Source: an uncultured Patescibacteria group bacterium (GTDB taxonomy: Bacteria; Patescibacteriota; Minisyncoccia; Phycocordibacterales; UBA918). From it: a stretch of DNA of 64,000 nucleotides. The translations under genes were made by a program, and so were the position numbers. Below the pieces are notes generated by a model, which ran no database searches, was not told the origin of the DNA, and saw nothing but the letters and a program-made list of their open reading frames with translations. This document shows positions 23,902-27,910 of this stretch, in pieces. Within the stretch, counting starts at the first letter, position 1. The number at the start of each line of letters is the position of its first letter. The DNA lies in the NCBI GenBank assembly GCA_934699595.1, contig CAKUWT010000003.1, forward strand, positions 10,130-74,129, read 5' to 3'.

Positions 23902-24924
23902 ATGACCAACAATAGCACTAACCGTTCCATCATCCTCACTGGAGATCGCCCTACTGGACCTCTCCATCTTGGACACTATGTGGGATCCTTGCGTGAGCGT
24001 GTCATCTTGCAACACCAACACGATCAATTCGTGATGATTGCAGATGCACAGGCACTGACAGACAACGCAGAAAATCCTGACAAGGTTCGTTCCAACGTTC
24101 TCGAGGTTGCACTCGATTACTTGGCTGTCGGCCTAGATTCAGAACGCACGACAATCTTCATCCAGTCTCAGATTCCTGAGCTGGCTGAGTTGACCATGTA
24201 TTATCTTAACCTGGTCACAGTATCTCGACTGCAACGGAATCCAACTGTAAAAGAAGAGATTAAGCAACGTGGGTTCGAGAAAAGCATTCCAGCAGGTTTT
24301 TTGACCTACCCGGTCAGCCAAGCTGCAGACATTACCGCCTTCAAGGCAACTCTCGTTCCTGTCGGAGAAGATCAGCTGCCAATGATTGAGCAGACGAACG
24401 AAATCGTCAGAAGCTTCAATCGAATCTACAAGCACGATGTGCTTGTAGAGGCTAAGGCTGTTCTCTCAAAATCTTCGAGACTACCAGGTACGGATGGTCA
24501 GGGAAAAATGTCCAAATCACTTGGTAACGTCATCTCTTTGCGTGACAGCGCGGACGATGTTCGGAAGAAAGTGATGTCGATGTACACTGATCCGAATCAC
24601 TTACGAGTCGAGGACCCTGGTCAAGTTGAGGGCAATCCAGTGTTCAGCTATCTGGATGCTTTTGATCCTGACCAAGATACCCTTGATGCCATGAAAGAGC
24701 ACTACCGTCGTGGTGGACTCGGAGATGTTAAAGTCAAGCGCCGCTTACTTGAGGTGCTTGAGGCAGAACTTGGACCGATTCGAGAGAAACGTGAAGAGTT
24801 TGCACAAGACCCAGGACAAGTGTTTGACATGCTTCGGTCTGGTACTGAAAAGGCACGTGGTGTTGCAGCTGAAACCTTAGATCAGGTGAAAGTTGCAATG
24901 AAAATCAACTACTTCAACAACTAA
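23902..24924 (+). CDS. trpS: tryptophan--tRNA ligase (canonical class I)
   Basis: [18 protein letters not shown] (HIGH), [26 protein letters not shown] before the ATG. Confidence 0.85.
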
Positions 24925-24935
24925 GGAGACGTAGA

Positions 24936-26027
24936 ATGTCCGAGTTTGTTCGCATCGCCACCATGGCGATGAAAGCAATGCTCGGAGATCATGCTGAACT
25001 CGAACTCGTTTTGCTTTCTTCGCCAGGCAGCTCTGGTGCGAGAGTGTCTATCTTTAGGCACTCTCGCACTGAAAAACTGTTTGCAGTGAAGTGCGCAAAT
25101 GAGTCGCGTGTTTCACTGAAGAATGAAATAGCAAGAAGAGATTACCTGAAGCCTTACTTTGAGGGACATTTACCTCAAGTGCTGATGTTTCAGGTGATAG
25201 ATGGGTACGAAGTGATGGTCTCTGAGTGTAGAGGTTTGAACACCCTGCATCAACTCATAGTTCAATCAGAATTGCCACATGAGTATATGTTGAATATCTG
25301 GGAAGATATCTCAGCAAAGCTATTAGGTATGTGGCAGAAGACACGTTCTGACTATCAACCCGAACTGAACCCTCGAAACTTTTCTGCTCGAATGCAGAGG
25401 ATCAAAGACGGTGTTCAGGAAATCGAGTTGTTAGGGACGTCACTTGAGCAGCTCTGGGAACTGCCTATAAAGGTAAATGGTAGAAAGTACTCCAGTCTGG
25501 CAGACACTTTCCATGAGGTCCAAAACATTGAGACTCCTGACTTTGGAGTTTTGTGTCACGGCGACCCTCAGCCAAGCAATTTTATTGTAGACCGGAATGG
25601 TCACTGGAATTGTATTGATTGGGAGTGGGCTGGAGGACCTCACGATTGGCGCATGATGATGGCGCATTTGCACGGCTGGTGGACAACAAGATGTCTTGCG
25701 CTTACCAAAGAACCTTCAGTTAAGGTGAGCGAAGAAGTGCTGGAATTAGAGTATGACGCTTTTGTTCCAGCACACCTGTTTAGGTATCAAAATACCTCGA
25801 TCGGCTTGCTCAAAAGTATGGCTCCAACGGTCAAAGAAAGGGTTCGTGCGATTAATGGTATCAATCGTTATCTCGCGGCCCTTTACTTGGGTGAAGTTCG
25901 ATTTTTGCCTCTCTGGGGCAGAAATGCATTTACTGTGCCCATGTTGGCTCAGGCAGTCATGGCTGTGTCAAACGAGAACGACGCCTATGGCGGTCCCTTC
26001 AAAATCTCTCTGAACGAGGAGGAATAA
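24936..26027 (+). CDS. APH/choline-kinase-fold phosphotransferase
   Basis: LCHGDPQPSNFIV (HGD..N catalytic loop), IDWEWAG (DxE), lysine in FAVKC. ATG 12 nt after the trpS stop, with GGAG RBS. Confidence 0.6.
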   Translation: MSEFVRIATMAMKAMLGDHAELELVLLSSPGSSGARVSIFRHSRTEKLFAVKCANESRVSLKNEIARRDYLKPYFEGHLPQVLMFQVIDGYEVMVSECRGLNTLHQLIVQSELPHEYMLNIWEDISAKLLGMWQKTRSDYQPELNPRNFSARMQRIKDGVQEIELLGTSLEQLWELPIKVNGRKYSSLADTFHEVQNIETPDFGVLCHGDPQPSNFIVDRNGHWNCIDWEWAGGPHDWRMMMAHLHGWWTTRCLALTKEPSVKVSEEVLELEYDAFVPAHLFRYQNTSIGLLKSMAPTVKERVRAINGINRYLAALYLGEVRFLPLWGRNAFTVPMLAQAVMAVSNENDAYGGPFKISLNEEE

Positions 26028-26029
26028 AC

Positions 26030-26836
26030 ATGTATCGAGAACTCATGAGTGATGAGTCGTACAGGTTTGTCTTGAGAGCGACACGCTCGCTCTCAAGACA
26101 CACTGTCGACCAAGGTAAAGACGGGGGCTATTGGGTGAATTATGGAAGCTTCGTAATCAATACCCAACAGCCCAGTAGTGACATTGACTTGCTCTATGTA
26201 CACCAAAACTCTGAGCCAGTCAGCAGAATGTCTGCTTCTTTCGAGGGACATCCTGTCACTATCTATCAACTCAGTGAAAACGATCTTCTAAATGACGGAG
26301 AAATAGCAAAGTTTGGTGGATATTTCAGCGGCAAGCTGTTAAATCCATTTGTGATCCTCTCAGAAGATCATCGACATAACGAAGTCGCACTAAGATCTGC
26401 AGGGTCATTCATTGGCCCTCACACTGTTCACCAAACAGCAGAAGTACATACACCTGCGAGGGTCGTTAAAGACACTGTCTTGGCGCGGTTAAAACTGTGT
26501 CCGTGGTACGACAGCTACTTTTTGCGCTATTACACACACCCAGGTTTTGCAATAATCTGGGAAGTAATGGTGAATGCTGTCTGTCTTTCACTTGAAACAT
26601 CAGGTCACATCCGGATTGATAAGAGTGGGTACAGGTATGTTCGTGTTTATTCTGAACAAGAATTGCACGAAAGAAGTGTGGCTGCCATTGCTCGATTTTG
26701 GAGTCTGGGAAGCTGCTTACACAGTAGTATGCCAGACTTTCCAGACTTCTACATGAAGAAGGCAAGGCAACATGTTGAAACCAATCAATTGAAGGGTCGT
26801 CTGGAGGAAATGATGAAATTCCTTCATTCCCCATAA
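26030..26836 (+). CDS. Pol-beta-superfamily nucleotidyltransferase-like protein
   Basis: YGSFVINTQQPSSDIDLLYV (GS..DxD NTase motif). Start is 3 nt after the previous stop, RBS GGAGG. Confidence 0.5.
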   Translation: MYRELMSDESYRFVLRATRSLSRHTVDQGKDGGYWVNYGSFVINTQQPSSDIDLLYVHQNSEPVSRMSASFEGHPVTIYQLSENDLLNDGEIAKFGGYFSGKLLNPFVILSEDHRHNEVALRSAGSFIGPHTVHQTAEVHTPARVVKDTVLARLKLCPWYDSYFLRYYTHPGFAIIWEVMVNAVCLSLETSGHIRIDKSGYRYVRVYSEQELHERSVAAIARFWSLGSCLHSSMPDFPDFYMKKARQHVETNQLKGRLEEMMKFLHSP

Positions 26837-26846
26837 GGAGGCTACA

Positions 26847-27890
26847 ATGCAACCAGACTATGCCCGTCAGTGGGCACTTGAGGCTGAGAGAATCTACGCA
26901 AGCAAAGTTGCGCAGTTCGCTCTTGAAACAGAGACGGCATTGAGGGAGACTGAGTTCACAAATACTTGGGACTCCCTCCTCGGTGTTGGTGTGTGGGCTG
27001 TACAGAATCACTTCCAGCTTTGCACAGCAATCAAAAACAAAAAAACCTTTGCTGTGTTAGTTGGTATGAGGCCTGGTGCCACGTTTCATCTTGGACATCT
27101 GACCATGATGAACGAGCTGCAATGGTATGTGCAAAAAGGCGGAGTGCCTTTGATTGTTTATGCTGGTTTCGAAGCTAGCAAAAAGCAAGAAGACTTGGAT
27201 CTTACGCACGAGTTCGAGGGCTTCAAGAAGCTGTATCGACGCTTTACAGGTGACGATCTGACTTCTGACACTATCGCTATCTCAGATCTGGAAGATCCTG
27301 CTCTCTTGAGACTGGAACGACAGATAGAGGAAGTTGTAACAGCCAGAAAGATACTCCAACTTTACGGCTGGGATGAGTCGACATCGGTTGCAAAGTTGCG
27401 TGTCCCTTGCAAGACAGCTGCAGCTTTTCTTCTGTCCTCCGTGCTGATGCCCGGAGTACCCAGTGTCATTTTATCGGACATCAATCAAGTGACTCACTTC
27501 GAAGTCGCAAAAATTGCAAGCCGATCTCTTGGGTTAAGACTTCCTACGGTTTCGTATCGCCACCTGCTGCAAAGTCTGGAAGGACCAGAAGGTAGAATGA
27601 GCGTTAAAAACCCAAAGTCTCTATTGTTGCTAGACGATACACCCGAGGTGGTCGGCAACAAGCTCAAAAGATGCTTCTCTGGTGGAAAGCTTACCGCCGA
27701 AGAACAGAGAGAAAGCGGTGGCAATCCTGATGTGTGTTCTTTCTTCAAAGTCGCAAACGTTACGCTTCCTAGAGAAGAATCGTTTGCAATACATAAATCT
27801 TGTAGAGACGGCTCTGTATTGTGTGGTGAGTGTAAGAAGCTGCACATTCCAGAAATTGCCGCAAGATTCCAAAACTTGGAGCCCGACTGA
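26847..27890 (+). CDS. divergent TrpRS-like class I aaRS paralog
   Basis: MRPGATFHLGHL (HIGH-like), EGRMSVKNPKSLLLLDDTPEVVGNKLKR aligns to the TrpRS KMSKS..LLD.PE..KKI region, but KMSKS is altered to RMSVK. RBS AAGGAGG. Confidence 0.6.
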   Translation: MQPDYARQWALEAERIYASKVAQFALETETALRETEFTNTWDSLLGVGVWAVQNHFQLCTAIKNKKTFAVLVGMRPGATFHLGHLTMMNELQWYVQKGGVPLIVYAGFEASKKQEDLDLTHEFEGFKKLYRRFTGDDLTSDTIAISDLEDPALLRLERQIEEVVTARKILQLYGWDESTSVAKLRVPCKTAAAFLLSSVLMPGVPSVILSDINQVTHFEVAKIASRSLGLRLPTVSYRHLLQSLEGPEGRMSVKNPKSLLLLDDTPEVVGNKLKRCFSGGKLTAEEQRESGGNPDVCSFFKVANVTLPREESFAIHKSCRDGSVLCGECKKLHIPEIAARFQNLEPD

Positions 27891-27910
27891 AATAGGTCGG
27901 GCTTTTTTTC
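27880..27910 (+). terminator. rho-independent terminator closing the trpS operon
   Basis: agcccgac tgaaatag gtcgggct followed by ttttttt. Confidence 0.6.

Follow-up and report, generated by a model that had tools for sequence, protein, structure and literature searches.

The window analysed here is a stretch of 64,000 nucleotides on contig CAKUWT010000003.1 of an uncultured Patescibacteria group bacterium, and the subject is a cassette of four co-directional genes within it (Table 1): gene 1 is trpS, encoding a tryptophanyl-tRNA synthetase (TrpRS), gene 2 encodes a kinase, gene 3 a nucleotidyltransferase (NTase) and gene 4 a TrpRS-like paralog. The spacers between the genes measured 11, 2, and 10 nt, the four starts were preceded by the ribosome-binding sites AAGGAG, AAGGAG, GAGGAGG, and AAGGAGG, and the operon was closed by a terminator-like hairpin with an 11-bp stem (6 GC pairs), a 6-nt loop and a TTTTTTT tail. 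An earlier note, made by reading the sequence only, had described such an arrangement; its tight packing, AGGAG-type ribosome-binding sites and single terminator at the operon end were all recovered, and its spacer lengths of 3-12 nt were corrected.

Table 1. Cassette genes and other features of the 64-kb window
Feature	Position	Strand	Length	Description
Gene 1	23902-24924	+	340 aa	Bacterial-type tryptophan--tRNA ligase (trpS), canonical
Gene 2	24936-26027	+	363 aa	Orphan kinase, APH / choline-kinase / methylthioribose-kinase fold
Gene 3	26030-26836	+	268 aa	Orphan two-domain Pol-beta-type nucleotidyltransferase
Gene 4	26847-27890	+	347 aa	TrpRS-derived paralog, archaeal Fe-S-cluster type (as judged from sequence)
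Intrinsic-terminator-like hairpin	27878-27905	+		Closes operon; overlaps gene 4 stop codon
tRNA-Glu(TTC)	18210-18282			Directly before start of low-GC island
AAA_30/UvrD_C_2 helicase-like gene	18409-21111		900 aa	In low-GC island
Large serine recombinase	21134-22417	-		In low-GC island
HAD hydrolase	22486-23181	-		In low-GC island
PF06821 serine hydrolase	23187-23801			In low-GC island
Noncoding stretch	27930-28410		520 bp	3' of terminator; cluster of GTGAC/GTCAC half-sites
Palindrome	27956-27968			Within half-site cluster
Secreted-looking protein	28874-32677	-	1267 aa	Beta-helix, Laminin_G_3, PKD-like repeats

Conservation of the four-gene unit

The order trpS, gene 2, gene 3, gene 4 was identical in at least 15 distinct loci, wherever the sequence extended far enough, and this recurrence rules out a chance arrangement. 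The loci came from Berkelbacteria (CP066697.1), Falkowbacteria, Woesebacteria, Parcubacteria GW2011_GWA2_40_23, further Patescibacteria, and JGI/ENA metagenomes, with a sporadic distribution among candidate phyla radiation (CPR) lineages. The genes flanking the cassette were unrelated from locus to locus, and a bacterial trpS stood upstream of genes 2-4 in all 14 loci with enough sequence. Stop/start overlaps between cassette genes were found in some loci. Pairwise identities of the four genes were strongly correlated (Spearman 0.92-0.97 without the Woesebacteria locus L011, 0.83-0.94 with it). Ratios of nonsynonymous to synonymous substitution against the closest relative (L015) were 0.05, 0.12, 0.11, and 0.15 for genes 1 to 4, respectively, and all four genes are under purifying selection. 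In CPR/Patescibacteria the four genes form one conserved operon, inherited as a unit.

The gene 4 family comprised about 70 clusters, with proteins of 342-370 aa scoring 210-783 bits, and was set apart by a sharp gap from true archaeal TrpRS, which reached at most 114 bits. All named members were Patescibacteria, and the homologues carry the NCBI product name "hypothetical protein". In a set of 5.8 billion proteins the families of genes 2 and 3 comprised 58 and 30 clusters, respectively, and in the 15 loci examined both genes occurred only within the cassette. The closest named homologue was in a metagenome-assembled genome (MAG) of Kaiserbacteria. No relatives of the gene 4 paralog were found on viral contigs, so that carriage by phages is not supported. 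One complete cassette lay on a 7-kb contig from a MAG labelled "uncultured Gammaproteobacteria bacterium" (L009; CAYSOR010000052.1), which is probably mis-binned Patescibacteria.

The canonical trpS gene

The textbook TrpRS recognised in the earlier note was borne out: gene 1 scored 256.9 bits against TIGR00233, above the trpS equivalog cut-off of 176.75, and its translation contained HLGH, GEDQ, and KMSKS. Its relatives were found on more than 595 metagenome contigs at 64-79% identity, mostly without the cassette, and among the best 80 of them the cassette tended to accompany only those at least 77% identical. Cassette-free relatives included those of L021 (79%) and L024 (73%); since the latter locus encodes multihaem cytochromes and a GGDEF regulator, it does not belong to a CPR bacterium. 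L021 was also considered as a syntenic "empty site" and rejected, its flanks being unrelated to those of the window. In the tree, the cassette-linked trpS genes fell into one clade of 18 tips, four of which were cassette-free. Gene 1 is an ordinary, widespread and unspecialised bacterial TrpRS, and no second trpS was present within the window. In the Woesebacteria locus the upstream trpS was of a different type (32% identical, 352 aa) and genes 2-4 still came next, which argues that the linkage to trpS is functional and not merely historical.

No Trp residue occurred in gene 1, either here or in any of the 15 cassette loci, and gene 2 was rich in Trp (2.75%, with a family median of 3.0%, versus 1.04% in the long open reading frames of the window). 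Because a Trp-free trpS is followed directly by a Trp-rich kinase, expression of genes 2-4 may depend on the supply of Trp-tRNA-Trp.

The TrpRS-derived paralog

Gene 4 was TrpRS-like, as the earlier note had seen, with PGATFHLGH and with RMSVK in place of KMSKS; SDINQ and the cysteines C297, C319, C326, and C329 were its further motifs. The best match in PDB was the Fe-S-containing TrpRS of Aeropyrum pernix (3a04, E=3e-23). The models matched were those of archaeal/eukaryotic-type TrpRS, and gene 4 stayed below every TrpRS cut-off (127.6 versus 451 bits for NF008925; 84 versus 176.75 for TIGR00233). Its nearest out-group in the databases (P0072) lay beside a tRNA-intron endonuclease in an archaeal contig. 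Similarity between genes 1 and 4 was limited to the HIGH region (E=0.006, 15 residues), and as they share nothing beyond that region, gene 4 did not arise by a recent duplication of gene 1. The four cysteines, known as the Fe-S motif of TrpRS (PMC4027196, PMC5370408), were invariant in the gene 4 family. As judged from its sequence, gene 4 descends from an archaeal TrpRS of the Fe-S type.

For the comparison of residues, 69 paralogs were aligned with 48 archaeal TrpRS and the human TrpRS, and columns were counted as changed when altered in essentially all paralogs and conserved in essentially all archaeal TrpRS. The residues kept in the family included H170, G172, and H173 (HxGH), E199, Q313, M350-S351, and K371; in the numbering of gene 4 itself, H81, G83, and H84 were invariant and M251-S252 was kept. 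Among these are the adenine contacts H170, G172, and M350, the roles of the residues of the ATP/adenine site and of those reading the ribose being taken from published work (PMC2275098). The CP1 helix K-x-x-Q-L-Y-G-W, which holds C75 and A76 of the tRNA, was 90-100% conserved in the paralogs. Similarly, the readers of the CCA anticodon (PMC1538984) were 86-100% conserved, with F377, S378, G380, G428, and K431 kept and H387 replaced by Gln as in archaea. By these signatures, gene 4 is a constrained protein that has very probably kept its binding of an adenine nucleotide and of tRNA-Trp at both ends.

The Asp of the AIDQ motif (D312), which was present in 48 of 48 archaeal TrpRS and in none of the 69 paralogs, was replaced by H, N, K, or M, with N213 at this position in gene 4 of the window. 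This Asp of the AIDQ/GxDQ motif binds the 2'/3'-OH of the ATP ribose and positions A76 (PMC2275098). K349, the first Lys of the KMS(K/A/S)S loop and Lys in 47 of the 48 archaeal enzymes, was Arg in all 69 paralogs, which also invariably carried Asp for A/G310 and Glu for R318. S353 was changed to K or R, Q284 in most cases to T or N, and D314, P315, D322, and P308 were likewise altered in the paralogs versus conserved in archaeal TrpRS. The paralogs were moreover without the N-terminal H-R-D triplet and about 20 residues shorter at the C-terminus. If the NAD-versus-NADP rule of Rossmann folds is taken as an analogy, the replacement of D312 by His, Asn, or Lys would fit a ribose with an anionic or otherwise altered 2'/3' substituent.

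A loss of Trp recognition through changes at Y159, Q194, K200, and R162 was considered and rejected, because named archaeal TrpRS carry the same substitutions (Thermofilum, Nanoarchaeota, and Ignicoccus, and by alignment A. pernix 3a04). Shared as they are with the TrpRS of a Crenarchaeota/Nanoarchaeota subgroup, these changes mark ancestry and not lost function.

The kinase and the nucleotidyltransferase

At the level of the fold, the assignments in the earlier note, a kinase of the aminoglycoside phosphotransferase (APH) fold and a GS..DxD NTase, were correct, and the motifs were present (HGDPQPSN and DWEW in gene 2, GS...SDIDL in gene 3). Gene 2 showed a bilobal kinase structure with the Lys-Glu pair, the HxDxxxxN loop and the metal-binding Asp, and its fold matches were methylthioribose-kinase/APH-like. 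It gave only weak, subthreshold matches to APH/choline-kinase models, reaching 31.3 bits against the APH(3') model NF033068 (cut-off 205) and 19.1 against Pfam APH (cut-off 23.2), and its profile gave nothing significant against PDB, with no match better than E=7e-4. Gene 3 gave only a weak, subthreshold match to NTP_transf_2, none to the family models of aminoglycoside nucleotidyltransferases (ANT) or Lnu, and no significant profile match in PDB. The closest folds were Tam41 and ANT(4'), which are 10-17% identical and do not allow a substrate to be inferred. The resistance by APH and ANT enzymes that the earlier note had suggested was not supported by these scores.

The catalytic residues were invariant in both families, and genes 2 and 3, as far as their residues tell, keep complete kinase and Pol-beta NTase catalytic sets. 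Many invariant Trp residues were found in the gene 2 family, and invariant Trp also occurred in that of gene 3. Binding of nucleic acids is not suggested for either protein, since the median isoelectric points were 6.6 and 6.3 (genes 2 and 3, respectively).

By an exhaustive profile search the gene 3 family was widened to 125 representatives. One of them (P0278, 529 aa) was a PfkB ribokinase-like kinase fused to a gene-3-like NTase (E=1.8e-13), a fusion which supports the activation of one small molecule by a kinase and then an NTase. Next to the fusion in its locus (L095, 6001-9463) came a 244-aa gene, which was rejected as a hidden paralog (hhalign probability 0.05%), and then a canonical archaeal-type TyrRS; upstream lay an AbiEii/BrnT/CopG cluster. 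A much weaker match restricted to the N-terminal core (E=7e-4) was found in an archaeal protein, P0323, fused to a Bud32-like kinase. In L099 (5639-8125) and L100, an NTase of the gene 3 family (P0281, 276 aa) overlapped the start of a canonical class-II LysRS; an AdoMet-decarboxylase-like gene precedes the NTase, and a CysRS gene lies two genes away. Another distant relative (P0261) was located between ManC-like and NUDIX genes. In L096 (291-2797) and L101 (216-2648) a methyltransferase was followed by a protein of about 316 aa (41% identical between the two loci) and a distant NTase; apart from this protein, the neighbours without an assigned family were mutually unrelated. There is thus a hint that gene-3-type NTases are recurrently associated with genes for aminoacyl-tRNA synthetases (aaRS), the statistics being weak because only three arrangements were seen. 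As these contexts suggest, genes 2 and 3 together would activate one small molecule, which is probably sugar- or ribose-like.

tRNA genes and genes next to the cassette

Two unrelated, independent loci had a bacterial-type tRNA-Trp(CCA) gene with G73 downstream of the cassette, at a distance of 0.7 kb in L007 (7782-7857) and 2.0 kb in L006 (9033-9105), and that of L007 carries the complete A1:U72/G5:C68/G73 identity set. By a rough estimate, the chance of finding tRNA-Trp near 2 of about 11 independent loci is about 1%. These genes point mildly to a tRNA-Trp theme and not to an orthogonal pair. A Pyl-like system with its own tRNA was rejected, the nearby tRNA-Trp genes being of the ordinary bacterial G73 type. 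The Rfam search for a T-box or other RNA leader returned tRNAs only, and none of the cassettes had a tRNA gene inside it.

In five loci (L003, 7130-8444; L010, 3092-4407; L012; L014; L017) gene 4 was followed by a weakly HAD-like gene of about 220 aa and a Peptidase_S51/class-I amidotransferase-like hydrolase of about 196 aa, and in L007 (7191-7736) by an S51 gene and then a NUDIX gene. The HAD-like, S51, and NUDIX genes may add optional steps to the pathway. In the complete Berkelbacteria genome (L006), ThiF and a FeeM-like N-acyl-amino-acid synthase were encoded upstream of the cassette (1-2743), and a GCS2 carboxylate-amine ligase, an AstE/AspA-like protein and a pyridoxal-phosphate-dependent decarboxylase downstream (7284-10639); these amino-acid-modifying enzymes are possibly, but not necessarily, connected with the cassette.

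Genomic setting in the window

The recombinase-bearing AT-rich island that the earlier note had placed next to the cassette is real. It adjoins the cassette, extends from 18.4 to 23.8 kb, and has a GC content of 0.34-0.39 versus 0.44 for the window, the content of the cassette itself being 0.45-0.48. No convincing att-type direct repeats bounding the island were found, and none of its genes, from the helicase-like gene to the serine hydrolase (18409-23801), occurred in any of the other cassette loci. On the other side, the noncoding stretch 3' of the terminator contains, within its cluster of GTGAC/GTCAC half-sites, the perfect palindrome GTGACCATGTCAC, and the cluster is a candidate operator array or small RNA. 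The secreted-looking protein further downstream combines a beta-helix and Laminin_G_3 with many tandem PKD-like repeats (...TxYTLTC...G... modules) and is probably a surface or adhesion protein.

Discussion

It is tentatively proposed, at somewhat less than even confidence, that the operon couples an ordinary TrpRS to an accessory pathway of three enzymes centred on tRNA-Trp. A Trp- or tRNA-Trp-dependent modification pathway had been the second option of the earlier note, and it fits the evidence. In such a pathway gene 2 would phosphorylate a hydroxyl of a small molecule, most likely of the sugar or ribose type, and gene 3 would then join a nucleoside monophosphate to the phosphate (X-OH -> X-P -> NDP-X, where NDP is nucleoside diphosphate). 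Gene 4, its site for the ribose and the amino acid remodelled, would bind tRNA-Trp, either free or charged by gene 1, and would carry out a noncanonical reaction of the aminoacylation or transfer type, in which the ribose-side ligand or the amino acid would differ from plain ATP plus Trp and which would be tied to the product of genes 2 and 3. Gene 1 would supply or balance Trp-tRNA-Trp, and the pathway would yield a product linked to tRNA-Trp or dependent on it, for use outside ordinary translation. The narrower claim that tRNA-Trp receives from gene 4 a load or modification other than plain tryptophan, in a CPR-specific charging or metabolite system, is doubtful; the candidate loads would be an amino acid or ribose-side group coming from the kinase and the NTase, or a phosphorylated or nucleotidylated 3'-terminal ribose.

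Several points weigh against the proposed pathway. Gene 4 might still activate Trp, given that the changes at Y159, Q194, K200, and R162 also occur in archaeal TrpRS, and constraints from the Fe-S cluster and the structure could account in part for the conserved anticodon domain. The kinase fold matches of gene 2 are generic, and the likeness of gene 3 to Tam41 is modest (TM-score 0.48) and without a match at the sequence level. The fusions come from distant relatives of gene 3 (E=1.8e-13 and 7e-4) and not from the cassette family itself. Moreover, no dedicated tRNA was found in the window or inside any cassette, and no glycosyltransferase, acyltransferase or carrier protein is encoded in the cassette.

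Gene 4 could instead be a genuine second TrpRS that still produces Trp-tRNA-Trp, e.g., an isoenzyme of archaeal origin that tolerates stress, scarcity or inhibitors, and genes 2 and 3 would then be merely co-transcribed or act as its regulators. The retention of HxGH, E199, Q313, M350-S351, the anticodon readers and the CCA helix would agree with this, as would the occurrence of the substitutions at Y159, Q194, and K200 in named archaeal TrpRS, and such roles were proposed by Mukai et al. (PMC5370408) for the TrpRS-A homologues of CPR bacteria. However, the AIDQ Asp of all archaeal TrpRS in the alignment is gone in every paralog, K349, R318, and Q284 are replaced too, and gene 4 never substitutes for gene 1, trpS being upstream in 14 of 14 loci. 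Mere co-transcription is also insufficient, because in the loci examined genes 2 and 3 never occurred apart from gene 4, with which they also co-diverge. A second TrpRS thus appears unlikely. A tRNA-independent ligase similar to MshC is improbable. Genes 2 and 3 would then make a sugar or NDP-sugar to which gene 4 ligates an amino acid, and the result would be a small-molecule or cell-envelope building block; this would accord with the logic of a kinase plus an NTase, with the sugar-type contexts of distant gene 3 relatives and with the HAD, S51, and NUDIX neighbours, and it is established that aaRS paralogs can serve as ligases of small molecules (PMC2922099). There would be no need for the anticodon readers and the CCA-binding helix without a tRNA, and their conservation at 86-100%, in a family whose members are down to 33% identical, therefore counts against such a ligase. 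These same determinants would be left unexplained if the cassette made a secondary metabolite, such as an aminoacyl-nucleotide mimic, directed against the TrpRS or Trp metabolism of a host or competitor, with trpS as a back-up of the target. An aaRS-like ligase and nucleotide-handling enzymes beside the target enzyme, the sporadic distribution in CPR, and the ThiF, FeeM-like, and GCS2 genes near one locus are what such a system might look like, but the trpS of the cassette is unspecialised, with relatives 73-79% identical that have no cassette, and neither a conserved exporter nor further tailoring genes were found among the cassette loci. Only a low probability is given to it.

The earlier note had favoured an acquired antibiotic resistance or detoxification cassette, in which a TrpRS insensitive to the drug would stand beside an APH and an ANT; this is now considered very unlikely. 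The fold classes of genes 2 and 3 are indeed those of APH and ANT, and a mobile AT-rich island adjoins. However, both genes score far under the APH/ANT family cut-offs, and genes 2-4 were found only together in the loci examined, unlike resistance genes that are stand-alone and promiscuous. The unit is conserved and co-diverging across CPR lineages with differing flanks, has a composition near the window average, is absent from viral contigs by the search described above, and shares no island genes with its counterparts in other loci. Nor does either synthetase look like a drug-insensitive copy: gene 4, with its damaged AIDQ motif, is of the archaeal type and not a variant bacterial TrpRS, and gene 1 is ordinary. 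Conserved synteny, one of the observations that the note had named as speaking against its own inference, was found, whereas the paralog did not group with ordinary CPR TrpRS and genes 2 and 3 did not classify as known housekeeping enzymes. A toxin-antitoxin or antiphage system acting on tRNA-Trp or TrpRS, with the NTase or kinase as toxin and the paralog as decoy or sensor, is hardly to be expected. There are NTase toxins modifying the ends of tRNAs and NTases under the control of a kinase, and gene 3 has weak matches to HalB and MntA. These matches are, however, confined to the GS...DxD core; PADLOC gave no match for genes 1, 2, and 4 and only subsignificant GS-motif matches for gene 3 (E 0.0095-0.027). 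The presence of a housekeeping gene in the operon, its position outside defence islands, strong purifying selection and co-divergence are likewise at odds with a defence system.

Comparison with known systems

The nearest published system to the proposed tRNA-Trp-linked pathway is TrpRS-A/ORF1, described from CPR and DPANN organisms, in which tRNA-Trp(A73) and a single ORF1 are followed by TrpRS-A (Mukai et al. 2017, PMC5370408); it was set against the cassette by description and not by sequence. Both have an archaeal-type TrpRS homologue of CPR bacteria that coexists with, and sometimes adjoins, a bacterial TrpRS and has a constant partner gene, and some members of TrpRS-A carry the four-Cys [4Fe-4S] motif (PMC5370408). 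In contrast, the order here is trpS, kinase, NTase, paralog, the operon includes no tRNA gene, and those for tRNA-Trp nearby are of the G73 type. The ORF1 partners of TrpRS-A1 are reported to be Trp-free, whereas the partners here have kinase and Pol-beta NTase folds with invariant Trp, and neither a kinase nor a nucleotidyltransferase is mentioned in Mukai et al. (2017, PMC5370408). No later description turned up in the literature searched.

The cassette resembles the auxiliary bacterial TrpRS in that a second gene of the TrpRS family stands beside a housekeeping copy. Examples of the latter are the indolmycin-resistant TrpRS of Streptomyces and TrpRS II of Deinococcus radiodurans. Those enzymes are bacterial-type and stand-alone with canonical motifs, whereas gene 4 is archaeal-type, has RMS for KMS, lacks the AIDQ Asp, and is tied to two helper genes.

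The aaRS paralogs recruited outside translation, such as MshC, GluQRS (YadB), EpmA (PoxA), and the cyclodipeptide synthases (CDPS), have each opened new biochemistry. As is proposed for gene 4, they and the MetRS-like ligases (PMC2922099 for the latter and CDPS) reuse a class-I aaRS scaffold for other acyl transfer, in operons with small-molecule enzymes; most of them are without anticodon recognition, whereas gene 4 keeps the readers of the CCA anticodon and the CCA-end helix. If the proposed pathway is true, the list of tRNA-dependent chemistries would be extended, an archaeal synthetase would have been functionally re-used in bacteria of minimal metabolism that depend on a host, and three uncharacterised protein families (genes 2, 3, and 4) would gain a function. 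If the loading with a group other than Trp is also true, a new kind of tRNA-linked metabolite or charging system would have arisen from an archaeal synthetase. The survey of class-I aaRS-like ligases by the Aravind group covers CDPS and MetRS paralogs only (PMC2922099), and no description of a TrpRS-derived ligase with kinase and NTase partners was found in the literature searched.

In their arrangement, genes 2 and 3 follow the pattern in which a kinase of the APH or PfkB fold is succeeded by an NTase that makes NDP-X, coupled here by a spacer of 2 nt. Known pairs and fusions of this kind are AmgK-MurU, NahK-GlmU, LicA-LicC, HldE, and Fkp, the last two of which are mirrored by the PfkB-NTase fusion P0278. 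The known pairs use a pyrophosphorylase of the GlmU/RmlA or HIGH type, whereas gene 3 is a two-domain NTase of the Pol-beta/Tam41-like kind. Its likeness to Tam41, a CTP:phosphatidate cytidylyltransferase, and to ANT(4'), the kanamycin nucleotidyltransferase, is one of fold, without a relationship at the sequence level. For a kinase and an NTase coupled with an aaRS paralog no precedent is known.

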